The notes under the pieces: generated by a model | Told to the model about the DNA's origin: nothing | Seen by the model: the letters and a program-made list of their open reading frames with translations, nothing else | Databases searched by the model: none | Origin: Escherichia coli | GTDB lineage: Bacteria > Pseudomonadota > Gammaproteobacteria > Enterobacterales > Enterobacteriaceae | Reading direction: 5' to 3' (one strand) | Length of the DNA: 64,000 nt | Assembly (NCBI RefSeq): GCF_036507355.1 | Contig: NZ_AP027877.1 | In this document: in pieces, positions 33,546 through 48,354 of the stretch | How the letters are laid out: every line of letters begins with the position of its first letter | Position numbering within the stretch: position 1 is the stretch's first letter | Made by a program: the position numbers and the translations under genes

Positions 33546-33558
33546 TACATGTTGTAGC

Positions 33559-33598
33559 AATCCCGTACTGATTATGAAGAATAGTCAGTACGGGGATT
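33559..33598. terminator. Stem-loop downstream of gss
   Basis: Near-perfect inverted repeat AATCCCGTACTGA ... TCAGTACGGGGATT; no strong T-run, so terminator function is uncertain. Confidence 0.35.
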
Positions 33599-33836
33599 AA
33601 TCAAAATATTCAATATTTATATATTCAAATATTTATTCATTTCATATGTGAATACATTAACCAGCAGAATGCCTGTGTTCTAATTATTTCTAAAGATTTT
33701 TAATGAATGCTTATTGTCTGATACACAAGAAATAACACTCTTTTTATCGTTAAAAAATGATATTTCACTTTGCCCACACCGTTAAAGTCACTGATAATGC
33801 GTCCGTTCGTAAATTCAAAATGGCGTAATCTAATAT

Positions 33837-35384: not shown

Positions 35385-36077
35385 CTAGTGATAACCACGC
35401 GCGGTCATAAAATCCGTAATCGCTTTTTCTGCATCAACCAACACCTGTTCCAGTGGCTGATTGGCATCGATATCAACCAGTTGTGCACCACCAAAGGTTA
35501 ACTGTGGCGTTATGGCAATCTTCCTCGCCAGCGATTCCCGTTTATGGTCGGGTTTACGCATGCAGGCAACTTCAAGGTCAACATTGAGTTTGATGACCAG
35601 ATCAGGCTTATGGCTCGCCATCCAGTGAAACGCTTTACGTTCCTGGCTTGCCAGCCATGAGACAAAACGACCACCTTCAACGTTAGGTGGGAACACCGTA
35701 CCATCGTAAGCGCCAGGAATTTGGTCCTGAGGATAACGGTCGGTTAGAACAATTAACCCGCGACGACGACAGGCAAGCATATGACGAAAGCGCAGTAAGC
35801 GACGGGCGACAAACGCTGTAATTACCAGCGCCGGAACTGGTCCAGGCAATTTTTTTGCTGTTTTCACCTGATTTCGTTCAATTGTTTTATGTAAGGATTT
35901 TCCCATCAACGGTAATTTTGTCACTGCACGACCGACATTTCCGGCCTGTTTTCCTAAATGAACTCTTTCGGCAGCACCATATTTTTCGACAACGGTAATG
36001 AGATGTTCACACACCGTTGACTTGCCTGAACCATCGCTACCAATAACGGCAATTAATGGAGGTGTTATTGACTGCAT
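35385..36077 (-). CDS. yghT: P-loop kinase-like protein YghT (thymidylate/nucleoside-kinase-like fold)
   Basis: 230-aa ORF; Walker [13 protein letters not shown]-type motif LTDRYPQ, C-terminal RKPDH motif shared with YghS/YghR. Confidence 0.85.
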
Positions 36078-36155
36078 GAATATATCCTTTAATTTAAATA
36101 TCCATTAAAAATATTTATTTGGTTAATATGTTTTTATGAAAGCGTAATTCAGGTC

Positions 36156-36183
36156 AATGTCACAATTAACCATTGTCACAATA
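36156..36183. promoter_or_regulatory. Candidate operator in the yghT/yghS divergent promoter region
   Basis: AATGTCACAATT and the perfect 11-bp palindrome ATTGT-C-ACAAT lie 16 bp apart in an AT-rich 173-bp divergent intergenic region. Confidence 0.3.
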
Positions 36184-36250
36184 AGGTTGAACGGATATTC
36201 TGAGCACGGACCACGTAATATTCAATACATTATTTGCTGCCGGGTTTTTC

Positions 36251-36964
36251 GTGAATCAACGTAATATGTCAATAATTAATTCCACGCCAGTGCGTGTTAT
36301 TGCCATTGTAGGATGTGATGGTTCAGGTAAATCGACCCTCACGGCAAGCCTGGTAAATGAACTGGCAGCAAGAATACCAGCAGAACACATTTATCTCGGG
36401 CAATCGTCCGGGCGAATTGGCGAATGGATTTCACAGCTCCCTGTTATTGGCGCACCTTTTGGGCGTTATCTGCGAAGTAAAGCGGCACATGTGCACGAAA
36501 AGCCCTCAACACCGCCTGGCAATATTACTGCGCTGGTTATCTATCTGCTTTCCTGCTGGCGGGCGTACAAGTTTCGCAAAATGTTGTGTAGAAGCCAGCA
36601 AGGCCATCTGCTCATCACCGACCGCTACCCGCAGGTTGAAGTGCCGGGTTTTCGCTTTGATGGCCCGCAATTGGCAAAAACCACGGGCGGTAACGGTTGG
36701 ATAAAAATGTTAAGGCAGCGCGAGTTGAAGCTGTACCAATGGATGGCGTCTTATTTACCCGTATTGTTGATTCGTCTTGGCATTGATGAACAAACCGCGT
36801 TTGCGCGTAAACCTGACCACCAACTGGCAGCGTTACAGGAAAAAATCGCCGTTACGCCGCAACTGACATTCAATGGCGCAAAGATCCTTGAACTGGATGG
36901 TCGGCAACCAGCCGATGAAATTCTGCAAGCGTCACTACGCGCAATTCACGCCGCGCTTTCCTGA
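36251..36964 (+). CDS. yghS: P-loop kinase-like protein YghS (paralog of YghT/YghR)
   Basis: 237-aa ORF; Walker A GCDGSGKST, ITDRYPQ, ARKPDH motifs. Confidence 0.85.
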   Translation: MNQRNMSIINSTPVRVIAIVGCDGSGKSTLTASLVNELAARIPAEHIYLGQSSGRIGEWISQLPVIGAPFGRYLRSKAAHVHEKPSTPPGNITALVIYLLSCWRAYKFRKMLCRSQQGHLLITDRYPQVEVPGFRFDGPQLAKTTGGNGWIKMLRQRELKLYQWMASYLPVLLIRLGIDEQTAFARKPDHQLAALQEKIAVTPQLTFNGAKILELDGRQPADEILQASLRAIHAALS

Positions 36965-36995
36965 TCACCAAAATGGATAGGGGATGATTTAACGA

Positions 36996-37754
36996 ATGGA
37001 TGCACTACAAACACAAACTGTTATTAGTACAACCGCGCCGCAGCCCAACTACATTCCGGGGCTGATTGCGGTGGTCGGGTGTGATGGCACCGGTAAATCC
37101 ACACTGACCACCGACCTGGTGAAATCGCTGCAACAACACTGGCAAACCGAGCGGCGCTATCTGGGGCTGCTCTCCGGCGAAGACGGCGACAAAATCAAAC
37201 GATTGCCGTTGGTTGGCGTCTGGCTGGAACGGCGACTGGCGGCCAAATCCTCGAAAACCCAAAGCATGAAAACCAAATCTCCGGCGCTATGGGCGGCGGT
37301 GATTATGTACTGCTTCTCGCTGCGAAGAATGGCGAATCTACGCAAGGTTCAGCGACTGGCGCAAAGTGGCGTTCTGGTGGTCAGCGATCGCTTCCCGCAG
37401 GCTGAAATTTCGGGCTTTTATTATGATGGACCGGGGATTGGCGTCGAACGTGCGACCGGGAAAATAAGCATGTTTCTGGCGCAGCGCGAACGGCGTTTAT
37501 ACCAACAAATGGCGCAATATCGCCCGGAATTAATTATTCGCTTGGGCATTGATATTGAGACTGCCATCTCCCGCAAGCCTGACCATGACTATGCCGAGCT
37601 GCAGGACAAAATCGGTGTTATGTCGACGATTGGCTATAACGGCACAAAAATTCTTGAGATTGATTCCAGAGCGCCCTACAGCGAAGTGCTGGAACAGGCA
37701 CAGAAGGCGGTTTCTCTGGTTGCCATCGTTTCTGACCGCCGAAGTTTAACTTAA
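36996..37754 (+). CDS. yghR: P-loop kinase-like protein YghR (paralog of YghT/YghS)
   Basis: 252-aa ORF; Walker A GCDGTGKST, VSDRFPQ, SRKPDH motifs. Confidence 0.85.
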   Translation: MDALQTQTVISTTAPQPNYIPGLIAVVGCDGTGKSTLTTDLVKSLQQHWQTERRYLGLLSGEDGDKIKRLPLVGVWLERRLAAKSSKTQSMKTKSPALWAAVIMYCFSLRRMANLRKVQRLAQSGVLVVSDRFPQAEISGFYYDGPGIGVERATGKISMFLAQRERRLYQQMAQYRPELIIRLGIDIETAISRKPDHDYAELQDKIGVMSTIGYNGTKILEIDSRAPYSEVLEQAQKAVSLVAIVSDRRSLT

Positions 37755-37799
37755 GGCTGGCGGGATACTTTTTACTATCAACGATAAGGTCAGGCTGAA

Positions 37800-39149
37800 T
37801 TGGCGGGTTTTAACATCAAACATTGGTTTGCAGATGGCGCGTTTCGCACCATTATTCGCAATAGCGCCTGGTTAGGCTCCAGTAATGTCGTGAGCGCCTT
37901 GCTGGGTCTGTTGGCGCTCTCGTGTGCCGGTAAAGGGATGACGCCCGCCATGTTTGGCGTACTGGTGATTGTGCAATCGTACGCCAAGTCGATCAGCGAT
38001 TTTATTAAGTTTCAGACATGGCAGCTGGTGGTTCAGTACGGAACACCAGCATTAACCAACAATAATCCGCAGCAATTTCGCAATGTCGTCTCATTTTCCT
38101 TCTCGCTGGATATCGTCAGCGGCGCGGTGGCGATTGTCGGCGGCATTGCCTTACTGCCATTCCTTTCCCATTCATTAGGTCTGGATGACCAAAGCTTTTG
38201 GCTGGCGGCGCTGTATTGCACGTTCATTCCTTCAATGGCTTCCTCCACGCCGACCGGCATTCTGCGTGCGGTAGATCGCTTTGATTTGATTGCTGTACAG
38301 CAGGCGACGAAACCTTTTCTGCGCGCAGCGGGGAGCGTCGCAGCCTGGTATTTTGACTTTGGTTTTGCGGGTTTTGTTATTGCCTGGTACGTGTCGAATC
38401 TGGTTGGCGGCACCATGTACTGGTGGTTTGCCGCGCACGAATTACGCCGCAGAAATATCCATAACGCCTTCAAATTGAATCTGTTTGAGTCTGCCCGACA
38501 CATTAAAGGCGCGTGGAGTTTTGTCTGGTCAACCAACATTGCCCACTCCATCTGGTCGGCGCGTAACTCGTGCAGCACAGTGTTGGTGGGGATCGTGTTA
38601 GGACCCGCTGCCGCCGGGTTATTTAAAATCGCCATGACATTCTTCGATGCCGCCGGAACGCCAGCGGGTTTGCTGGGTAAAAGTTTTTACCCAGAGGTGA
38701 TGCGTTTAGATCCGCGCACCACCAGACCGTGGTTGTTAGGCGTGAAGTCCGGTTTACTGGCGGGCGGAATCGGTATTCTGGTGGCGCTCGCGGTGTTGAT
38801 CGTCGGCAAGCCGCTCATTTCGCTGGTGTTTGGCGTTAAGTATCTCGAAGCGTATGACCTGATTCAGGTGATGCTGGGCGCAATTGTGATCTCGATGCTG
38901 GGTTTCCCGCAGGAGTCATTGCTATTGATGGCGGGAAAACAGCGCGCTTTTCTCGTGGCGCAAACCATCGCCTCAATCGGCTACATCGTATTGCTGTTCA
39001 TGTTCTGTCATCTGTTTGGTGTGCTGGGAGCAGCGTTTGCTTACTTCGGTGGGCAATGTCTGGACGTGGCGCTCTCGTTAATTCCAACCTTAAAGGCATT
39101 TTTTCAGCGCCATTCCTTGCTTTATAACGCAGCCGGAGAGAAATCCTGA
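37800..39149 (+). CDS. yghQ: Polysaccharide-biosynthesis/MOP-flippase-family inner membrane protein YghQ (apparently full length)
   Basis: 449-codon ORF from a TTG at 37800 (true start may be an internal ATG); highly hydrophobic multi-TM protein; I recall K-12 YghQ as shorter. Confidence 0.8.
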   Translation: MAGFNIKHWFADGAFRTIIRNSAWLGSSNVVSALLGLLALSCAGKGMTPAMFGVLVIVQSYAKSISDFIKFQTWQLVVQYGTPALTNNNPQQFRNVVSFSFSLDIVSGAVAIVGGIALLPFLSHSLGLDDQSFWLAALYCTFIPSMASSTPTGILRAVDRFDLIAVQQATKPFLRAAGSVAAWYFDFGFAGFVIAWYVSNLVGGTMYWWFAAHELRRRNIHNAFKLNLFESARHIKGAWSFVWSTNIAHSIWSARNSCSTVLVGIVLGPAAAGLFKIAMTFFDAAGTPAGLLGKSFYPEVMRLDPRTTRPWLLGVKSGLLAGGIGILVALAVLIVGKPLISLVFGVKYLEAYDLIQVMLGAIVISMLGFPQESLLLMAGKQRAFLVAQTIASIGYIVLLFMFCHLFGVLGAAFAYFGGQCLDVALSLIPTLKAFFQRHSLLYNAAGEKS

Positions 39150-39973
39150 TGATGAGAAAATATTTCCCGCTTGAGGCGAGCGAGCATCTATTTGTTGCGA
39201 TTGAGGAAGATGATGTTGTTGATGCCCAGGTCAGTTTGCCGCCGACTATCGCACTAAGTTGTACCACCGAAATCATCCATGATAATTACGCGTTATGCCT
39301 GCAATTCTGGCTCAATGGCGTTGATCGTCAGGAATTACTTCGTTTAATTCGCAAACAAGCCAAAGGCGATGAGCTGACGACAGACGAGCGTAAACAGTTT
39401 AAATACATGCGAGCGCGCTACAAGCATCTACGTTTTGCACAACGGCTGTATTTAAAAAAGCATCAGGCCAGATTTTTATTCGGCAAAACGACCGTTTTTC
39501 TGGGACGTTTTCAGGACGGATTTCGTAACGGTAAGAAAAATATTGTGTCGTATTACGGCAACCTGTTACGAATTTATTTAAGCTCTCCGGTCTGGTCGTT
39601 GGTGAACTATTCATTACGCCATAGCCAGTTAGAAAGCGTAAGCGGTTTTATTGCCTATCGGCAAAAGCAAATGCATACCCTGAAAGAGATTATTGCCAAA
39701 CCGCGACTAACCGGCAGGGAATTTCATGATGTGCGAAAAATCATCAGCCAGCAGGTTTCTTATTACGACACCTTAAGATCGCTTGATCCTGAAAATAAAG
39801 AGGCGTTACAGATTTCCCGTTTCCTCGCCGCCATTAATGGCCTGATGGGGGATCAACACGACGACATGGTGGCGGATGATATGGAAAACCGCCAGTCGTA
39901 TGATGCACCGGTGGCGCTGGATAGCGATATTCGCCAGCGCTTAGAGCTGCTGATTTCGCGTTTTCCGCTATAA
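39149..39973 (+). CDS. Hypothetical basic protein (274 aa), no family recognised
   Basis: ATG overlaps the yghQ stop (TGATG), implying translational coupling; ORF MMRKYFPLEASEHLFVAIEEDDVV...; within a same-strand gene array. Confidence 0.65.
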   Translation: MMRKYFPLEASEHLFVAIEEDDVVDAQVSLPPTIALSCTTEIIHDNYALCLQFWLNGVDRQELLRLIRKQAKGDELTTDERKQFKYMRARYKHLRFAQRLYLKKHQARFLFGKTTVFLGRFQDGFRNGKKNIVSYYGNLLRIYLSSPVWSLVNYSLRHSQLESVSGFIAYRQKQMHTLKEIIAKPRLTGREFHDVRKIISQQVSYYDTLRSLDPENKEALQISRFLAAINGLMGDQHDDMVADDMENRQSYDAPVALDSDIRQRLELLISRFPL

Positions 39974-39981
39974 CCGGAGCA

Positions 39982-40545
39982 ATGATGTCATCTCGTTTGA
40001 TTATTGCGCTGATTATCATGCTCTTAGCCCCGGGTGTGCAGGCACACAATTTCGTCACTGGCAAAACGGTTACCCCTGTTTATATTCAGGAAGGCGGCGA
40101 GCTGCTTCTGAATAGCGACGACGAAATTCACTACCAAAAGTGGAACAGCACACAATTGGCGGGAAAAGTCCGAATTATCCAGTATATCGCCGGGCGTAAG
40201 TCGGCGAAGAAAAAGAACTCACTGTTAATTAAAGCGGTTGAAGCGGCAAACTTTCCGCAGGATCGTTTTCAGCCCACCACCATTGTGAACACCGATGATG
40301 CCATCTTTGGTACTGGCTATTTTGTTGTTGGCAAAATCGAAAAAAATAAACGCCACTATCCGTGGGCGCAATTCGTTATTGACGGCAATGGACAGGGACG
40401 CGTTGCCTGGCGCTTGCCGGAGCAGAGTTCAACCATTCTGGTGCTGAATAAAGCCGGGCAAATTCAGTGGGCAAAGGACGGCAGCCTGACGCCGGAAGAG
40501 GTAGATCATGTTATTGCGCTGGCGCAGAAACTGATCAATGAATAA
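39982..40545 (+). CDS. YtfJ-family periplasmic protein (paralog of E. coli YtfJ)
   Basis: 187-aa ORF with signal peptide; HNFVTGKTVTPVYIQEGGELLLNSDDEIHYQKWNSTQLAGKVRIIQYIAGR closely parallels my recollection of the YtfJ sequence. Confidence 0.7.
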   Translation: MMSSRLIIALIIMLLAPGVQAHNFVTGKTVTPVYIQEGGELLLNSDDEIHYQKWNSTQLAGKVRIIQYIAGRKSAKKKNSLLIKAVEAANFPQDRFQPTTIVNTDDAIFGTGYFVVGKIEKNKRHYPWAQFVIDGNGQGRVAWRLPEQSSTILVLNKAGQIQWAKDGSLTPEEVDHVIALAQKLINE

Positions 40546-40575
40546 AAAATTCAAAGGATTGAGGGCGTTAGTGAG

Positions 40576-41646
40576 ATGAAGCTGGTTGAACACTACATCA
40601 TGCGTGGTACGCGCCGTCTGGTGCTGATTATCGTCGGTTTTCTGATCTTTATTTTCGCCAGCTACTCCGCACAGCGTTATCTGACCGAAGCGGCAAATGG
40701 GACATTAGCTCTTGATGTTGTGCTGGATATCGTTTTCTACAAAGTGCTGATTGCACTGGAGATGTTGTTACCTGTTGGTCTGTATGTGTCAGTTGGCGTG
40801 ACGCTAGGGCAGATGTATACCGACTCGGAAATTACCGCTATCTCTGCGGCGGGGGGCAGTCCGGGACGCTTGTACAAAGCCGTTCTTTATCTGGCGATAC
40901 CGCTAAGTATTTTTGTCACCCTTCTGTCGATGTATGGTCGTCCGTGGGCTTATGCGCAGATTTATCAACTGGAGCAGCAGTCGCAGTCGGAGCTGGATGT
41001 TCGCCAGTTGCGGGCAAAGAAATTTAACACTAACGATAACGGACGAATGATCCTTTCGCAGACGGTTGATCAGGATAATAATCGCCTGACTGACGCGCTG
41101 ATTTATACTTCTACTGCCAATCGAACCCGCATTTTCCGCGCCCGTTCGGTTGATGTGGTTGACCCATCACCCGAGAAACCGACCGTTATGTTGCACAACG
41201 GCACTGCCTATCTTCTCGATCATCAGGGGCGTGACGACAACGAACAGATCTACCGTAATCTGCAATTACATCTGAATCCGCTGGATCAAAGCCCTAACGT
41301 CAAACGCAAAGCGAAATCGGTCACGGAGCTGGCGCGCTCCGTCTTTCCAGCCGATCATGCCGAACTGCAATGGCGACAAAGCCGTGGCCTGACCGCATTG
41401 TTGATGGCGCTGCTGGCCATTTCATTAAGTCGGGTAAAACCGCGGCAAGGGCGATTTTCAACATTATTGCCACTGACGTTGCTGTTTATTGCCATTTTTT
41501 ATGGCGGCGACGTCTGCCGTACGCTGGTGGCTAACGGCGCGATTCCCCTCATTCCTGGTTTGTGGTTAGTACCCGGACTCATGCTAATGGGCCTGCTGAT
41601 GCTGGTCGCACGCGACTTCTCTTTGCTGCAGAAATTTTCCCGATGA
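40576..41646 (+). CDS. LptF/LptG-family (YjgP/YjgQ) permease paralog 1
   Basis: 356-aa ORF; N-terminal TM segments; region LEMLLPVGLYVSVGVTLGQMYTDSEITAISAAG parallels the LptF motif [29 protein letters not shown] recalled from memory. Confidence 0.8.
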   Translation: MKLVEHYIMRGTRRLVLIIVGFLIFIFASYSAQRYLTEAANGTLALDVVLDIVFYKVLIALEMLLPVGLYVSVGVTLGQMYTDSEITAISAAGGSPGRLYKAVLYLAIPLSIFVTLLSMYGRPWAYAQIYQLEQQSQSELDVRQLRAKKFNTNDNGRMILSQTVDQDNNRLTDALIYTSTANRTRIFRARSVDVVDPSPEKPTVMLHNGTAYLLDHQGRDDNEQIYRNLQLHLNPLDQSPNVKRKAKSVTELARSVFPADHAELQWRQSRGLTALLMALLAISLSRVKPRQGRFSTLLPLTLLFIAIFYGGDVCRTLVANGAIPLIPGLWLVPGLMLMGLLMLVARDFSLLQKFSR

Positions 41647-42722
41647 ATGTTTTCAGTCGCTATTTAATCCGTCATCTCTTTCTCGGTTTTGCCGCCGCCG
41701 CAGGGCTATTGCTGCCGCTTTTTACCACCTTCAACCTGATTAACGAACTGGATGATGTCAGCCCGGGCGGTTATCGCTGGACTCAGGCGGTGCTGGTGGT
41801 GCTAATGACCTTACCGCGCACACTTGTCGAACTTTCGCCATTTATCGCCTTATTGGGAGGGATTGTCGGCCTGGGGCAGCTATCGAAAAACAGTGAGCTT
41901 ACCGCCATTCGCAGCACGGGGTTTTCTATCTTCCGTATTGCACTGGTGGCGCTGGTTGCCGGGATATTGTGGACTGTTTCGTTAGGCGCGATAGATGAGC
42001 GGGTAGCGTCGCCATTGCAGCAACAGGCGCTGCAAATCAAATCGACCGCCACCGCGTTGGGGGAGGACGATGACATTACCGGCAATATGCTGTGGGCCAG
42101 GCGCGGCAATGAATTTGTGACGGTGAAATCGCTGAATGAGCAGGGCCAGCCTGTGGGCGTGGAGATTTTTCATTATCGTGACGATCTCTCGCTCGAATCC
42201 TACATTTATGCACGCAGTGCCACCATTGAAGACGACAAAACGTGGATCCTGCATGGTGTGAATCATAAAAAATGGCTGAATGGCAAAGAAACGCTGGAAA
42301 CATTAGATAATCTTGCCTGGCAATCGGCCTTCACCAGTATGGATCTTGAAGAGCTATCGATGCCGGGGAATACTTTTTCTGTCCGTCAGCTTAATCATTA
42401 CATCCATTATTTGCAGGAAACCGGGCAACCCAGCAGCGAATACCGCCTTGCACTGTGGGAAAAACTGGGGCAACCCATCCTGACCCTGGCGATGATTTTG
42501 CTGGCTGTGCCGTTTACCTTTAGCGCCCCGCGCTCGCCAGGGATGGGTAGCCGTCTCGCTGTAGGCGTCATCGTTGGCTTACTCACCTGGATCAGCTATC
42601 AAATCATGGTCAATTTGGGATTGCTATTTGCGTTAAGCGCACCTGTTACCGCGCTCGGTTTACCGATAGCGTTTGTGCTGGTGGCGTTGAGCCTGGTGTA
42701 TTGGTATGACAGACAACATTAA
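41643..42722 (+). CDS. LptF/LptG-family (YjgP/YjgQ) permease paralog 2
   Basis: ORF 41562-42722 trimmed to ATG 41643 (MNVFSRYLIRHLFLGF..., 359 aa) overlapping the upstream stop (ATGA); same architecture as paralog 1. Confidence 0.8.
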   Translation: MNVFSRYLIRHLFLGFAAAAGLLLPLFTTFNLINELDDVSPGGYRWTQAVLVVLMTLPRTLVELSPFIALLGGIVGLGQLSKNSELTAIRSTGFSIFRIALVALVAGILWTVSLGAIDERVASPLQQQALQIKSTATALGEDDDITGNMLWARRGNEFVTVKSLNEQGQPVGVEIFHYRDDLSLESYIYARSATIEDDKTWILHGVNHKKWLNGKETLETLDNLAWQSAFTSMDLEELSMPGNTFSVRQLNHYIHYLQETGQPSSEYRLALWEKLGQPILTLAMILLAVPFTFSAPRSPGMGSRLAVGVIVGLLTWISYQIMVNLGLLFALSAPVTALGLPIAFVLVALSLVYWYDRQH

Positions 42723-42723
42723 A

Positions 42724-42750
42724 CCCGCCGTGGCGCAACACCACGGCGGG
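42724..42750. terminator. Hairpin between convergent operons (putative bidirectional terminator)
   Basis: CCCGCCGTGG-CGCAACA-CCACGGCGGG perfect 10-bp stem in the 34-bp gap between the two convergent stops. Confidence 0.5.
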
Positions 42751-42756
42751 CTCACA

Positions 42757-43929
42757 TTACTGCTTCAGAGTAGCAAATGCCTGAATGATGGCATCGATTT
42801 GCTCACGACTGTGGGCAGCGTTTACGCTACAGCGCAGCAGCGTGATGCCTGCAGGCGCGGCAGGTGGCAGGATAAGATTCACATAAACGCCCAGCGAAAT
42901 AAGCTCGCGCCAGATGCGTAAACCTTCCTCTTTCGAACCGATTATTACCGGCACTACCGGACTAATATGTGAACTTAACTCATAACTCAGCTTTTGCAGC
43001 CCGTCATACAGATGGTTGGCATTATCCATCAGTTTTTGCCGCAACTCTGGTTGAGTGGCAATGGTTCTTAACGACGAGCGCACGGTTGCAATGCAGGAAG
43101 GAGAAGGGGAGGCGGTAAAAATATACGGACGACTGCCGTAGCGCAGCACTTCCATCGCTTCCGAACCCACGGCAAAACCACCAATAGAAGCCAGGCTTTT
43201 ACTGAAGGTGCCAACGATAATATCCACATCATCTTCAACGCCAACGGCTTCAACCAGCCCGCGCCCCGTTGCGCCTAACACGCCAAACGAGTGAGCTTCA
43301 TCGACAATTAAATATCCGCCGAGACGACGTTTGATATCAACAATTTCCGCCAGCGGCGCAACGTCACCGAGCATACTGTAGATGCCCTCAACGATGATAA
43401 TCGCCTCTTTCGCCCGTTCACCGAGGCGAACCATGCGCCGTTCCAGATCTTTAGCATCGTTATGGCGGAAACGAATAATTTCCGCGCCACCGAGAGAACA
43501 GGCGTCATAAATACTGGCGTGGCTGTCAGCATCCAGTAACACCACGGCGTTATGGTCGGCAAGTGCGCTGATGACGCCTAAATTAGCGGTATAACCGGTT
43601 GAAAAAACGATAGCGGTAGGGCGATTGAAAAACTCAGCAATCTCTTTCTCTAACGCCAGATGCGGCGCATAACTGCCGTTTGCCATACGAGAACCGGTGG
43701 TGCCGGTGCCTTGGGCCGCTAACGCTGCCTGACCTTCGGCGATGGCATCATGATTGAAGGTTAATCCGAGATAATTATTGGTCCCGGCCAGAATCACTTT
43801 TTTATTGCCGATCCGGCCTTCGGTGGCGGAATACACTTCATCAATACAGGTGCCAAACGGTGTTAACCCGTTGTCACTAAATTGCAGACGCTCGCCAGCA
43901 AGGCGCGCATATTTATCGTATAGCCCCAT
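42757..43929 (-). CDS. PLP-dependent alpha-oxoamine synthase, serine-palmitoyltransferase-like
   Basis: 390-aa ORF; DEAHSFGVLG and GTFSKSLASIGGF (PLP-lysine motif of the AONS/SPT/KBL family); ATG overlaps the stop of the upstream ACP gene. Confidence 0.85.
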   Translation of the reverse strand: MGLYDKYARLAGERLQFSDNGLTPFGTCIDEVYSATEGRIGNKKVILAGTNNYLGLTFNHDAIAEGQAALAAQGTGTTGSRMANGSYAPHLALEKEIAEFFNRPTAIVFSTGYTANLGVISALADHNAVVLLDADSHASIYDACSLGGAEIIRFRHNDAKDLERRMVRLGERAKEAIIIVEGIYSMLGDVAPLAEIVDIKRRLGGYLIVDEAHSFGVLGATGRGLVEAVGVEDDVDIIVGTFSKSLASIGGFAVGSEAMEVLRYGSRPYIFTASPSPSCIATVRSSLRTIATQPELRQKLMDNANHLYDGLQKLSYELSSHISPVVPVIIGSKEEGLRIWRELISLGVYVNLILPPAAPAGITLLRCSVNAAHSREQIDAIIQAFATLKQ

Positions 43930-44177
43930 TATTTATTCTCCAGCCATGGAAGTAGAGTTTCCATTAATTGCGCAGGGGTTTTGACATCCAGCAGAATATT
44001 AATAGGAATGGAAATATCGAATCTGTCTTCCAGCATCATTAAGAGATCCATCACTTTGATCGACTCCAGGCCAAGATCGTTGACGAGATCGCTGTCGGGC
44101 TTAATTTCCACACCGTTTTCGACCAAATCCTGTAAACAGGAAAGGATGTAATCCATTACTATTTCACGATTTACCAT
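43929..44177 (-). CDS. Acyl carrier protein (dedicated, non-AcpP)
   Basis: 82-aa acidic ORF with DLGLESIKVMDL phosphopantetheine-attachment-type serine motif. Confidence 0.8.
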   Translation of the reverse strand: MVNREIVMDYILSCLQDLVENGVEIKPDSDLVNDLGLESIKVMDLLMMLEDRFDISIPINILLDVKTPAQLMETLLPWLENK

Positions 44178-44208
44178 AGAAACGTTAACACACCTTTAAA
44201 CAAGACAA

Positions 44209-45123
44209 TCAAAATAGCCCGTTGCGTAATGCGTGTTCCAGGCTAATCCCGGGAAACCAATTAATATCTTCAGAAATACGGTTATTACTTGCCGACCAGT
44301 CGGCGTGGGTTAATTCACGAATTTTCGAGCGGGTCAGCATAGGTTCTTTACCTGCCAGGCGACTCAACGCGGTACTGATATCCGCAAGGCAGGTGAGTAC
44401 CGGCAGAGGAATGCCAACCATTCGCACGGAACCACAACGGGCGTCGGCGGCAAGTTGCTGTACGCGTTGCCAGTCATAGCCGCCAGCGACGCCATCGCAT
44501 AATTCATAGGTTTGCGTCTGTACAGTTTCGGCGCTTAACCACTGACCCACTGCTTGCGCAAAATCGGTGACATGCAGGAAAGAGAGCTGTGTATCTGGTG
44601 CACCAAGTCGTGGCAGCAGGCCGCGCAGCATCCAGTCAAACAGCGGTTTTAACTCTTTATCGCCGGGACCATACACGGCTGTCGGGCGAAAAACGCCCAG
44701 CGTAATTTCGTCAGCCATTGCCGTCAGCCGTTGTTCGGCGACGTGTTTGGAATTTGCGTACCAGGAGAGCTCGGGATGGCGCGCCGCCAGCGAAGAGATA
44801 AACAGAAAACGTTGGCAAAAGCCGCTCTCTTTTGCTGCTTGCATCAGGCGCAGGCTGCCGTCAACGTTACAGTGGGTAAAAATCTCTTCTTTGTGTCCGC
44901 GCACTTGCCCGGCGCAATGGACCACCGCGCTGGCTCCGGCAACCAGTTCGCTAAGCGAATGTGTATCTTCCAGCGAACCGCGCACCCAAGTAAGATTATC
45001 ATTGACGTGAGCGCGGGCAGTACGCGTCAATGCGCGAACGTGAAAGCCGCGGGCGAGCAGGTTATCGATAATATATTTACCGATAAAACCGGTAGCGCCC
45101 GTCACCGCGACAGTTTGATTCAT
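44209..45123 (-). CDS. NAD(P)-dependent epimerase/dehydratase-family (extended SDR) reductase
   Basis: 304-aa ORF; N-terminal VTGATGFIGKYI Rossmann motif; YANSK (YxxxK) catalytic motif; start overlaps the upstream stop (ATGA). Confidence 0.8.
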   Translation of the reverse strand: MNQTVAVTGATGFIGKYIIDNLLARGFHVRALTRTARAHVNDNLTWVRGSLEDTHSLSELVAGASAVVHCAGQVRGHKEEIFTHCNVDGSLRLMQAAKESGFCQRFLFISSLAARHPELSWYANSKHVAEQRLTAMADEITLGVFRPTAVYGPGDKELKPLFDWMLRGLLPRLGAPDTQLSFLHVTDFAQAVGQWLSAETVQTQTYELCDGVAGGYDWQRVQQLAADARCGSVRMVGIPLPVLTCLADISTALSRLAGKEPMLTRSKIRELTHADWSASNNRISEDINWFPGISLEHALRNGLF

Positions 45124-46841
45124 GCCAGGGATTCCTGCACATGAAGGCTTGCAGCATAAGCCTTCTGATAACGTTTTTTCGCTTCCGCACGGGCAGGCTT
45201 GCCGGAGGACGTTCGGGGAATGCTGTGGGGCGGCAACAGATCGATAGCCGCGGTCACGCCAAATTCGCTTTGGATCCGTGCTGCCAGCGCGTGGATAAGC
45301 TGCCCGCGACGTTCTTCATCGCTGATCCGACACTGGATCTGCAAAATGATTTTTTCCTGGACGGTAACAAAAGCAATCGCATCGCCAGAATGAATTTCCG
45401 GTTCCTGTTCCGCTATATATTCAATATCCTGCGGCCAGATATTACGGCCACGAATAATAATCAGATCTTTAATGCGTCCGGTGACATACAGATAACCATC
45501 CAGCAGATAACCGAGGTCGCCAGTGTCTAACCAGCCCGTCGCGGCAATCTCGTCTTGCGAAGCCTGGTCGCCAAAGTAACCGCTCATCAGACTGGGACCG
45601 GAGATGCAAATATGGCCTACCACACGTTCCGCGACCGGCATACCTGCTTGATTGCGGATTTCAATACCATGTTCCGGCAACGCTTTGCCGCAGTTGACGA
45701 AAGTCGATACGGCGCGTGTCTCTGCACCCGGCGCGACGGCTTTACCCTGATATTCGAGGATGTCGCGATCCACTTCGTTAACTACAACCCCGGAGGCTTC
45801 ATCAGAGAAGCTGACAGCCAGCGCATTTTCTGCCAGGCCGTAGCACGGCATGAAAGTTTTATCGTCAAAGTTAACCTGACGGAAACATTCAGCGAATTGA
45901 TGGAGTTGTTCTGCGGAGATGGGTTCTGCACCAATACCAGCGACGCGCCAGCAGGAAAGATCCAGTTCAGCGAGATCTTTTTCATTCACGCGGCGCTGGC
46001 ACAATTCATAGCCAAACGGCGGCGCAACGGAAACGGTGCCGCGATTTTTACTGATCAATTTAAGCCATTGCAGAGGACGCATGGCAAAATCCTGAGTGCG
46101 CAAATAATCTACTGAAAGTTGCGTGGCGACGGGGGTCAGGAGAAAGCCGACCAGTCCCATATCATGGTAGAAAGGCAGCCAGGAGACGCAGCGGTCGCCA
46201 GGGCGTAATTTAATGCCGTCGTGGCTTATAGCACGTAGATTAGCCATCACTTCGCGATGGGTGATAATGACGCCACGGGGAAAACGGGTGCTGCCGGAGG
46301 TGTACTGGAGGTAGGCGATATCGTTCGGAACTGGACGCTGGAGCGCAACATCGGCTTCCGGTAATGCCTTAAACCAGGCGTGGCTTAAAACATGTAATTC
46401 GGGGTTGTCATGCGTCGCGGCATTGACCAGTGGCAACCACTCATCACCAGTGATAATGGCTGCGGGCTGGCAACTTGTCAGTAAACCCTGCAATTTGGCG
46501 CTCCAGGAATCCCGCTGACCAACGCCCATTGGAATCGCCAACGGGACGGCGACTAAGCCGGCATACTGGCAGGCAAAAAAAGCCTCTACGAACCCGCTAC
46601 TTGTTTCGGCAATCAGTGCCACGCGATCGCCTTTTTTCAGGTTCAGCGATAACAACCGCTTCGCACCAGCTTCGGCACGCGCTTTTAACGTCTGATATTC
46701 CAGTTGATCTTCAAGTTGGCAACGTCTGTCATAAAAATTCATTCCAGCGCTACTCAGAGCGGCGTAGTCCAAAGCATCAACCAGCGTTGGAAAATCGGCA
46801 TAGCGTATAGGTAGGGAATGCGTAAAGATTTTATTAGACAT
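45120..46841 (-). CDS. Fatty acyl-AMP ligase / acyl-ACP synthetase (adenylate-forming enzyme)
   Basis: ORF 45120-46850 (GTG) trimmed to ATG 46839-46841 (MSNKIFTHSL...); AMP-binding core motifs YTSGSTRFPRGV and TGDLGY...GRIKDLIIIRGRNI. Confidence 0.85.
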   Translation of the reverse strand: MSNKIFTHSLPIRYADFPTLVDALDYAALSSAGMNFYDRRCQLEDQLEYQTLKARAEAGAKRLLSLNLKKGDRVALIAETSSGFVEAFFACQYAGLVAVPLAIPMGVGQRDSWSAKLQGLLTSCQPAAIITGDEWLPLVNAATHDNPELHVLSHAWFKALPEADVALQRPVPNDIAYLQYTSGSTRFPRGVIITHREVMANLRAISHDGIKLRPGDRCVSWLPFYHDMGLVGFLLTPVATQLSVDYLRTQDFAMRPLQWLKLISKNRGTVSVAPPFGYELCQRRVNEKDLAELDLSCWRVAGIGAEPISAEQLHQFAECFRQVNFDDKTFMPCYGLAENALAVSFSDEASGVVVNEVDRDILEYQGKAVAPGAETRAVSTFVNCGKALPEHGIEIRNQAGMPVAERVVGHICISGPSLMSGYFGDQASQDEIAATGWLDTGDLGYLLDGYLYVTGRIKDLIIIRGRNIWPQDIEYIAEQEPEIHSGDAIAFVTVQEKIILQIQCRISDEERRGQLIHALAARIQSEFGVTAAIDLLPPHSIPRTSSGKPARAEAKKRYQKAYAASLHVQESLA

Positions 46842-46850
46842 ATACACCAC

Positions 46851-47211
46851 GAAAAAATTGGATATCCAAAATAAAATGACAATAATGCGGTGGATTATAT
46901 AGGCATAAAAGATAAATGAGATAGTATTTTCATCGGTGTGAAAATGAACATTGATTTAAATAATGAGTTTAAGTTTTTTGTTTTTATTGTGAATGATATT
47001 TAATTTATGAATATATTAAGAAGAAGCCTTGTCCGGTCGCCTTAAATCGACAAAAGGCATTGTGGCGCTTCTGCGTAGTCGCTGACCCTATCGTAATCAT
47101 TAATAAATACTATTTATTCGTCGTTTGTATTCATTGGGTTGATTATTAAGATGCCGTTCGTTGCTGTTGCAACCTGTTTTTCACCGTTAATTATTTGTTA
47201 TCCACAGAACT
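46851..47211. promoter_or_regulatory. AT-rich divergent promoter region between the FAAL operon and yghO
   Basis: 361-bp noncoding stretch, visibly AT-rich with A/T tracts (e.g. TTTAAATAATGAGTTTAAGTTTTTTGTTTTTATTGTGAATGATATTTAATTTATGAATATATTAAG), flanked by divergent starts. Confidence 0.4.
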
Positions 47212-48354
47212 ATGGAATGCGATCTGCTGATGATCAAAATTGAAAAAGTAATTAATAAAAATGACCTTAAGGCATTTATTGCTTTTCCGTCATCACTTTA
47301 TCCCGATGATCCAAACTGGATACCCCCTTTATTCATTGAACGCAGCGAGCATTTGTCTGCGAAGAATCCGGGGACGGACCATATCATCTGGCAGGCGTGG
47401 GTGGCAAAAAAAGCGGGGCAGATAGTTGGGCGTATTACCGCGCAAATAGATACCTTACACCGCGAGTGTTACGGCGAAGATACCGGTCATTTCGGCATGA
47501 TTGACGCCATTGATGATCCGCAGGTTTTTGCCGCGTTGTTTGGCGCAGCGGAAGCGTGGTTGAAGTCACAAGGTGCAAGTAAGATCAGCGGGCCTTTCAG
47601 CCTGAATATCAATCAGGAAAGCGGATTACTGATTGAAGGTTTTGACACACCACCCTGTGCGATGATGCCACACGGCAAACCGTGGTATGCCGCGCATATT
47701 GAACAACTGGGTTATCACAAAGGCATTGATTTACTGGCGTGGTGGATGCAGCGAACCGATCTCACTTTCTCTCCGGCGCTAAAAAAACTGATGGTTCAGG
47801 TGCGCAAAAAGGTGACCATTCGCTGCATCAATCGCCAGCGGTTTGCCGAAGAGATGCAGATCCTGCGTGAGATTTTCAACTCTGGCTGGCAGCACAACTG
47901 GGGATTTGTGCCGTTTACCGAACATGAATTCGCGACCATGGGCGACCAACTTAAATATCTGGTGCCGGACGATATGATCTACATCGCTGAGATTGATTCT
48001 GCACCTTGCGCGTTTATTGTCGGCTTGCCAAACATCAACGAGGCGATTGCCGATCTGAACGGATCGCTCTTTCCCTTCGGCTGGGCAAAATTGCTGTGGC
48101 GTTTGAAAGTCAGCGGTGTGCGAACTGCGCGAGTACCGCTGATGGGCGTGCGCGACGAGTATCAGTTCAGCCGCATCGGCCCGGTGATTGCGCTGTTATT
48201 GATTGAAGCCTTACGCGATCCGTTTGCCCGCCGGAAGATCGATGCGCTGGAGATGTCATGGATCCTCGAAACCAATACAGGCATGAATAACATGCTGGAA
48301 CGCATTGGGGCGGAGCCGTACAAGCGTTACCGATTGTATGAAAAGCAGATTTAA
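47212..48354 (+). CDS. yghO: YghO-family protein, putative GNAT-like N-acyltransferase, intact
   Basis: 380-aa ORF MECDLLMIKIEKVINKNDLKAFIAFPSSLYPDDPNWIPPLF...; recognised as YghO family, which I recall as a disrupted pseudogene in K-12; acyltransferase assignment is from family knowledge, not from motifs I can verify. Confidence 0.7.
   Translation: MECDLLMIKIEKVINKNDLKAFIAFPSSLYPDDPNWIPPLFIERSEHLSAKNPGTDHIIWQAWVAKKAGQIVGRITAQIDTLHRECYGEDTGHFGMIDAIDDPQVFAALFGAAEAWLKSQGASKISGPFSLNINQESGLLIEGFDTPPCAMMPHGKPWYAAHIEQLGYHKGIDLLAWWMQRTDLTFSPALKKLMVQVRKKVTIRCINRQRFAEEMQILREIFNSGWQHNWGFVPFTEHEFATMGDQLKYLVPDDMIYIAEIDSAPCAFIVGLPNINEAIADLNGSLFPFGWAKLLWRLKVSGVRTARVPLMGVRDEYQFSRIGPVIALLLIEALRDPFARRKIDALEMSWILETNTGMNNMLERIGAEPYKRYRLYEKQI

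Follow-up and report, generated by a model that had tools for sequence, protein, structure and literature searches.

A candidate -35 box within the paired palindromic sites of the yghT/yghS spacer of Escherichia coli

The divergent yghT/yghS spacer of E. coli carries two similar palindromic sites. Both are real, but related bacteria keep only half of one of them, and this half is most likely a -35 box rather than one of two operators. Strong constraint is confined to the left 8 bp of site 2, ATTGTCAC, to which we assign a probability of roughly one half (0.52) of holding the -35 hexamer of an ordinary sigma-70-type yghS promoter (Pa), with a predicted start near 36208. As read from the sequence, the motif is ordinary promoter DNA ahead of an uncharacterised operon.

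Genomic setting

The window (the whole stretch of DNA analyzed, 64,000 nucleotides) is a segment of the E. coli chromosome in the reverse of the K-12 orientation. The genes of interest follow each other as pitB (+), yghT (-), a 173-bp spacer, yghS (+), yghR and yghQ, yghS being the first gene of a yghS-yghR-yghQ unit. A preliminary description of this DNA had noted paired motifs, one of them a perfect 11-bp palindrome, in an AT-rich divergent region between yghT and yghS, and had taken them for the operator of a dimeric repressor or activator controlling both transcription units. The setting is as described (173 bp, 30% GC, divergent), the two motifs are found at the place indicated (AATGTCACAATT and ATTGTCACAAT, Table 1), and site 2 is indeed a perfect palindrome. 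The GTG start codon of yghS and the AGTCAA that follows are kept across all the genera compared, Pseudocitrobacter having ATG instead. YghS proteins are 90-96% identical within Escherichia, and 62-77% identical in other genera.

The three paralogous P-loop kinase-like genes yghT, yghS and yghR lie at one end of a gene cluster (window 35385-48354). After yghR the cluster continues with yghQ (flippase-like), a 274-aa protein without Pfam match, a YtfJ-family protein, and LptF- and LptG-like permeases. Serine palmitoyltransferase, acyl carrier protein, a NAD-dependent epimerase/dehydratase-family protein and fatty acyl-AMP ligase are encoded on the opposite strand, yghO coming last. We take this gene content to resemble that of bacterial sphingolipid synthesis and export. 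The cluster is present in most E. coli; in the K-12 lineage an IS5 interrupts yghQ, and all genes from there to yghO are absent. In Serratia, Klebsiella and Mangrovibacter, genes for an aminotransferase and a carrier protein directly follow yghT. The distribution of the locus across genera is patchy, which suggests horizontal transfer. A 262-bp contig (coverage 0.79) in an assembly of Nocardioides malaquae codes for the last 80 residues of YghT, 99% identical to E. coli; contamination by E. coli DNA is almost certain in this case.

The yghS gene belongs to the H-NS regulon, and SlyA overexpression raises its expression only 3.1-fold (PMC5797941), which points to a K-12 promoter that is weak or silenced. 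For FlhDC, a weak gSELEX peak (intensity 11) has been assigned to the yghT/yghS spacer (PMC9962212); the FlhDC box predicted in that study is a different sequence, located at about 35905-35950 inside yghT. Beyond this peak, no binding evidence or regulator site for the spacer was found in the literature searched, and searches with sequence strings of the motif retrieved primers and unrelated sequences only. Start sites of yghS, yghT or yghR do not figure among the entries listed in five genome-wide supplements (PMC3415461, PMC4782308, PMC7132871, PMC6131387, PMC4161252).

Table 1. Features of the yghT/yghS region, in window coordinates.
Feature	Coordinates	Strand	Remarks
yghT	35385-36077	-	P-loop kinase-like protein, 230 aa
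TATTTT, yghT proximal -10	36108-36113	-	likely; ends 30 nt before the yghT ATG
Site 1, AATGTCACAATT	36156-36167		imperfect palindrome around C36161; direct-repeat copy 1
Dyad core, ACAAT-TAACC-ATTGT	36162-36176		sole exact ACAAT-N5-ATTGT match in the window; candidate operator core in the alternative reading
Site 2, ATTGTCACAAT	36172-36182		perfect 5+1+5 palindrome; direct-repeat copy 2
ATTGTCAC	36172-36179	+	left 8 bp of site 2; only strongly constrained part
Pa -35, TTGTCA	36173-36178	+	proposed; 5/6 to TTGACA; within ATTGTCAC
GTGACA	36174-36179	-	reverse complement of the site 2 core; -35-like, 5/6 to TTGACA, toward yghT
Pa -10, TATTCT	36196-36201	+	proposed; 4/6 to TATAAT, including A2 and T6; ends 49 nt before the GTG
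Pb	36198-36226	+	candidate; TTCTGA (36198-36203), 17 bp, TTCAAT (36221-36226); predicted start near 36233
yghS	36251-36964	+	GTG start at 36251; P-loop kinase-like protein, 237 aa, paralogous to YghT

Sequence and geometry of the paired sites

The distance of 16 bp given for the two motifs in the preliminary description holds from start to start, but the strings quoted there are separated by just 4 bp (AACC); the A at 36183 trails behind site 2 and is not part of it. The window has just two exact copies of the 9-mer TGTCACAAT, starting at 36158 and 36174. A 12-nt repeat with 11/12 identity is made up by CAATGTCACAAT at 36155-36166 and CATTGTCACAAT at 36171-36182. Sites 1 and 2 can also be read together as a 23-bp near-dyad, TGTCACAAT-TAACC-ATTGTCACA, in which 8/9 positions are complementary. 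Origin of the pair by recent tandem duplication of a 16-bp unit was rejected, the units being unrelated outside the shared 12 nt. The sites do not look like a structured RNA. Rfam returned no match to a known family (best scores 19-22 bits against gathering thresholds of 50-91, E-values 0.25-0.69), and the hairpin potential of the pair is no better than that of shuffled sequences (z = -0.31). A hairpin was discarded also on account of the change T36160C found in E. whittamii and E. albertii, which would break the outer stem and is uncompensated.

Exact 9-mer direct repeats within 30 bp number 13 in the window, against 6.9 +/- 3.3 in shuffles; 5+1+5 palindromes are 66 (69 expected), and 12-nt repeats with at most one mismatch are 2 (2.4 expected). 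In this one spacer the 9-mer repeat would arise by chance with a probability of 0.043, the 12-mer with 0.023, the palindrome with 0.35, and repeat and palindrome together with 0.015. As there are dozens of spacers in a 64-kb window, about one such case is expected, and the direct repeat, taken alone, is within chance.

Searches of the window for TGTCACAAT, ATTGTNACAAT and ACAATN5ATTGT gave no matches in other promoter regions, and near-matches across the window are at or below chance (17 vs. 15.8 expected, 18 vs. 32.7, and 17 vs. 33.3). A search for the motif upstream of the FAAL operon and of yghO, suggested in the preliminary description, was negative, neither a copy nor a near-copy being found in the FAAL/yghO spacer (about 46851-47211). 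GlcC adjoins yghO but is part of the glc operon, and no DNA-binding domain was detected by a Pfam scan of nine cluster proteins.

Repeats with the same period were observed elsewhere. A second direct repeat in the same spacer is formed by ATATCCTTTAA at 36082 and ATATCCATTAA at 36098, likewise spaced 16 bp; its inverse, GGATAT, is found at 36193 beside the yghS -10. The copy at 36098 is present only in Escherichia and Pseudocitrobacter, and the copy at 36082 overlaps the ribosome-binding site of yghT. The gss-pitB spacer features an exact 9-mer direct repeat, AATATTTAT (33612-33636), with copies also 16 bp apart.

Conservation of the spacer

The 60-mer 36140-36199, which holds both sites, is identical in 4393/4684 of the E. 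coli genomes in which it is present (94%), K-12 derivatives, Nissle and O55:H7 included. The flanking 60-mers are identical in 2673/4544 (59%) and 1515/4644 (33%) genomes. In three E. coli variants sampled, changes fall at 36150 or 36155, just outside the motif. In strain PCP06171 (NZ_CM129872.1) an IS1 ends exactly at 36155/36156, abutting AATGTCAC, and replaces the yghT side of the spacer. In five Escherichia lineages the motif is variable at 1/28 positions, and the remainder of the spacer at 4/67 positions on the yghS-proximal and 19/78 on the yghT-proximal side. The motif sits in the quiet half of the spacer, without standing out inside that half.

The comparison was extended to 23 orthologous spacers from about 11 genera, all with the divergent yghT / yghS-yghR arrangement. 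These were taken from Escherichia (five species-level lineages and E. albertii), Citrobacter, Pseudocitrobacter, Hafnia, Shimwellia, Pluralibacter, Erwinia, Sodalis, Klebsiella, Serratia, Mangrovibacter, and three metagenomic relatives. ATTGTCAC is identical in 15/15 sequences from Escherichia, Citrobacter, Pseudocitrobacter (including unk82), Hafnia (including unk76) and Shimwellia. No other invariant run in the spacer is as long, a result with P = 0.007 (one sequence per genus) or 0.001 (nine sequences) by column shuffling, and P = 0.004-0.023 when the run is tested inside the conserved half of the spacer. ATTGTCAC is absent from Sodalis, Klebsiella, Serratia and Pluralibacter.

The rest of the pair is less well kept. 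Over the five genera, 8/11 positions of site 2 are invariant, none of them outside the left 8 bp. In the right arm of the palindrome 2/5 positions are constant; beyond Escherichia, ACAAT gives way to ACAAC, ACGAC or ACGGC. Of the positions of site 1, 3/9 are constant in the five genera and 1/9 in the nine sequences, against a background of 40/101 in this half of the spacer. The sequence of site 1 is TGCCACAAT in E. whittamii and E. albertii; Hafnia shows GCCACAAT or GCCACATT, Citrobacter CGACAAT or CGCTAAT, and Pseudocitrobacter CTGACATT. In C. farmeri the dyad has a perfect 6-bp left arm, GACAAT, where Pseudocitrobacter has ACATT, C. amalonaticus CTAAT and Shimwellia ACAAA. With site 1 and the right arm changing as fast as the background, both the direct repeat and the perfect palindrome are Escherichia-specific. 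An operator of a dimeric regulator with both sites kept in orthologues, as implied by the preliminary description, does not emerge from these figures. The part of that proposal which stands is that the DNA is probably functional and cis-regulatory, as the invariance of ATTGTCAC suggests.

Three conserved islands start about 23 bp apart, ATTGTCAC at 36172, ATATyCTGA at 36195 and AATATwCAA at 36216. Between them, stretches of 12 bp (e.g. 36183-36194) have 0-1/12 invariant positions, and in the yghT-proximal half of the spacer the sequences can hardly be aligned at all (13/72 positions invariant). Conserved islands with freely varying gaps are, to all appearances, promoter geometry.

More divergent spacers show further variation. 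In Pluralibacter gergoviae a 17-bp insertion with a small palindrome, GGGCAGTTGCCC, is found at the place of the E. coli site 1, and AGGGCCAC replaces ATTGTCAC. Sodalis has a site-1-like sequence, CGTCACAACTGACC, matching at 12/15 positions in a hand alignment and lying at the same distance from the -10. An alignment of E. coli CACAATAAGGTTGAAC with Serratia CACAATAAATACCTTGAAC was set aside, preference being given to an alignment through ATATyyTGAAC, which holds in all genera. The Serratia spacer is much longer (356 bp), and contains a palindrome, TTGATAATTATCGA, which we presume to resemble a Fur box. Serratia, Klebsiella and Mangrovibacter share a block, ACAATTAGCAC(A/G)AA (GTAATTAGCACGAA in Mangrovibacter), similar to the E. 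coli ACAATTA...CACAA minus 7 bp.

Candidate yghS and yghT promoters

TTGTCA and TATTCT are separated by a 17-bp gap, are correctly oriented toward yghS, and match the consensus at 9/12 positions in total. The combination TTGTCA-17-TATTCT is the sole sigma-70-like match on either strand in the interval 35900-36450; the promoter-like matches expected by chance in a region of this size are 1.6 +/- 1.3, as estimated from shuffles. Each orthologous spacer was scanned for sigma-70-type promoters with a simple PWM. Pa is the top yghS-directed match in Escherichia, Citrobacter, Pseudocitrobacter, Shimwellia (with a 16-bp gap) and a Hafnia-like contig, scoring 8.2-9.3 bits; the exception is Hafnia paralvei, in which it comes second (8.2 vs. 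8.7 bits). In all five genera the Pa -10 ends 47-51 nt ahead of the yghS start codon. It is kept as TATNNT (TATTCT, TATCCT, TATGTT, TATCTT), positions 1, 2, 3 and 6 being constant and positions 4-5 variable, which is the pattern expected of a -10 element.

The conservation of ATTGTCAC may thus be explained without a regulator, because a -35 hexamer would lie in it at canonical spacing from a conserved -10. RNA polymerase with sigma-70 would use TTGTCA and TATTCT and start near 36208, giving a leader of about 43 nt up to the GTG at 36251. Relative to this start, site 2 would span -36 to -26, and site 1 -52 to -41. Site 1, the right arm and the 16-bp repeat would be features of the Escherichia lineage without detectable constraint, most simply chance resemblances in AT-rich DNA. 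Pa is like a sigma-70-type promoter (TTGACA, 17 bp, TATAAT) in having conserved hexamers, a variable gap and a distance of 49 nt to the start codon. It is unlike a typical one in that both hexamers are imperfect, that it is overlapped by a second promoter, and that it is predicted from sequence; a further difference is that its gene is H-NS-silenced in K-12 (PMC5797941). Against Pa stands the length of the invariant run, which is 8 bp and not 6, along with the non-consensus T of TTGTCA, which has never changed in any lineage even though one substitution would suffice for TTGACA. The longer run and the kept T hint at a further constraint, from a bound protein or from a reading of GTGACA on the minus strand.

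The second yghS promoter, Pb, probably the ancestral one, would be located 25 bp downstream of Pa, so that the ATATTCTGA block is proposed to serve both. The conservation of ATATTCTGA is no proof of a -10 role, because a role as -35 region of the downstream promoter accounts for it as well. In Sodalis, Klebsiella and Serratia the best promoter found by the PWM is TTGAAC-16-TACAAT, at the place homologous to Pb (9.6-10 bits). In the genera bearing ATTGTCAC the Pb -35 has decayed to CTGAGC or CTGAAT; Pluralibacter is an exception, having a decayed Pb -35 (CTGAAC) yet no ATTGTCAC. That ATTGTCAC occurs only alongside a weak older -35 is consistent with an upstream promoter that compensates, and equally well with an activator site. 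The conserved block TAATATACAAT (36216-36226), which holds the TACAAT -10, reads TAATATTCAAT in all Escherichia sequences. Escherichia alone has TTCAAT for TACAAT, and T in place of A as the second base of the Pb -10 would be expected to weaken Pb.

For yghT, a promoter close to the gene is most likely, with the -10 predicted at 36113-36108 and the start near 36101. In record NZ_CP083410.1, where the yghS GTG is at 3133819, the predicted Pa, Pb and yghT starts correspond to 3133862, 3133837 and 3133969. The AAATA block of this -10 is nearly invariant in all clades, and Shimwellia, Pluralibacter and Erwinia feature TTGAGG or TTGAAG, 17 bp and TATTTT at the same distance from yghT. As no good -35 is present in E. 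coli, the proximal promoter is assigned there by homology.

Alternative readings

A dimeric regulator may bind the dyad ACAAT-N5-ATTGT, centred at 36169, or both TGTCACA palindromes, which we regard as unlikely. Such a protein would repress by covering the -35 at 36173-36178, or would activate both Pb, from a position at about -56 to -71, and the yghT promoter, from about -61 to -76. In favour of this reading, the window has a single exact copy of the dyad, the element is midway between the two core promoters, and the invariant run goes one base past the hexamer on each side, the non-consensus T being constant. All near relatives retain part of the left arm, which in C. farmeri completes a perfect GACAAT-N5-ATTGTC; Sodalis has the site-1-like CGTCACAACTGACC, and within E. 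coli no part of the spacer is less polymorphic than the motif segment (94% identical vs. 59% and 33% for the flanks). Yet site 1 and the left arm are conserved no more than the background, and the motif does not recur above chance in the FAAL/yghO spacer or in the rest of the window. The nine cluster proteins scanned lack a Pfam DNA-binding domain, and the only published binding evidence is the weak FlhDC gSELEX peak, whose predicted box is elsewhere (PMC9962212). Covariation between the dyad arms is impossible, because the right dyad arm never varies. It is rather unlikely that ATTGTCAC and the partly kept arm are the operator of a regulator encoded outside the cluster, coordinating yghT and yghS-yghR-yghQ. 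If they were, an outside regulator would control a horizontally mobile cluster, resembling one for sphingolipid synthesis and export, via both units. Consensus sites of CRP, FNR, PhoB/Pho box, ArcA, DnaA, the MarA/SoxS/Rob marbox, RcsAB, SlyA, CusR, MlrA, GlrR, matS, IHF, sigma-54 and sigma-E were compared by hand with the motif, and none matched convincingly.

The palindromic core might instead consist of back-to-back -35 boxes, TTGTCA (+) for yghS and GTGACA (-) for a distal yghT promoter, an arrangement that we consider improbable. Constraint on both strands would explain the invariance of all 8 bp. Exactly 17 bp after GTGACA, both Hafnia-type spacers have TATTTT and both Citrobacter spacers TAGTAT (7.2-8.5 bits), and in Sodalis the site-1 homologue, GTGACG-17-TATATT, is the best yghT promoter (9.1 bits). 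The better-conserved yghT -10 block is however the one nearer the gene, at 36108-36113, and the yghT-side reading cannot explain the conservation in Escherichia, because at 17 bp from GTGACA the window and all Escherichia have TGACCT, which is not a -10.

Absence of any function, the pair being a chance repeat in AT-rich DNA conserved through slow divergence or recent horizontal spread, agrees with repeat statistics within chance at window level and with the patchy distribution that suggests horizontal transfer, but is very improbable, as ATTGTCAC never changes though the adjoining 12-bp stretches (0-1/12) and the yghT-proximal half (13/72) do, the run having P = 0.001-0.007 in the whole spacer and 0.004-0.023 in the conserved half.

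Resemblance to known operators

The phage 434 operator has the form ACAA-N6-TTGT. ACAAT-N5-ATTGT, being an ACAA-N7-TTGT inverted repeat, is like the operators of 434-type dimeric helix-turn-helix proteins, and like a classic repressor operator it overlaps a candidate -35 box. It is unlike the 434 operator in its spacing, one base longer, and unlike dimeric operators in general in having one arm conserved, no cognate gene among the cluster proteins scanned and no second copy in neighbouring promoters.

The CRP consensus is TGTGA-N6-TCACA. Each of the two sites contains a perfect TCACA half-site (36160, 36176), TGTGA on the other strand, but the partner positions at 6-bp spacing read TCAGG and ATTAA, and the two half-sites share one orientation, at a distance of 16 bp. 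The Pho box, considered since pitB is the next gene, is made up by two CTGTCAT-like direct 7-bp repeats with an 11-bp period. The repeats described here are similar in that they are direct and contain TGTCA; they differ in the period, which is 16 bp and not 11, and in facing yghS/yghT, the upstream region of pitB being at about 33550-33836. The MlrA site of csgD is AAAATTGTACA-N12-TGTACAATTTT, and ATTGT-ACA and TGT-ACAAT look like its half-sites, a resemblance only: each core has an extra C (TGTCACA vs. TGTACA), and the cores start 16 bp apart, not 18.

Significance

In itself the motif matters little, and the surrounding gene cluster is of more interest. The paired-palindrome pattern is unfit as a motif for regulon searches, because just 8/27 bases are under detectable constraint. 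The value of the analysis lies in a map of the control region, made up by three conserved islands, two candidate tandem yghS promoters and a likely proximal yghT -10. The map shows which bases to mutate or replace for switching on the H-NS-silenced cluster.
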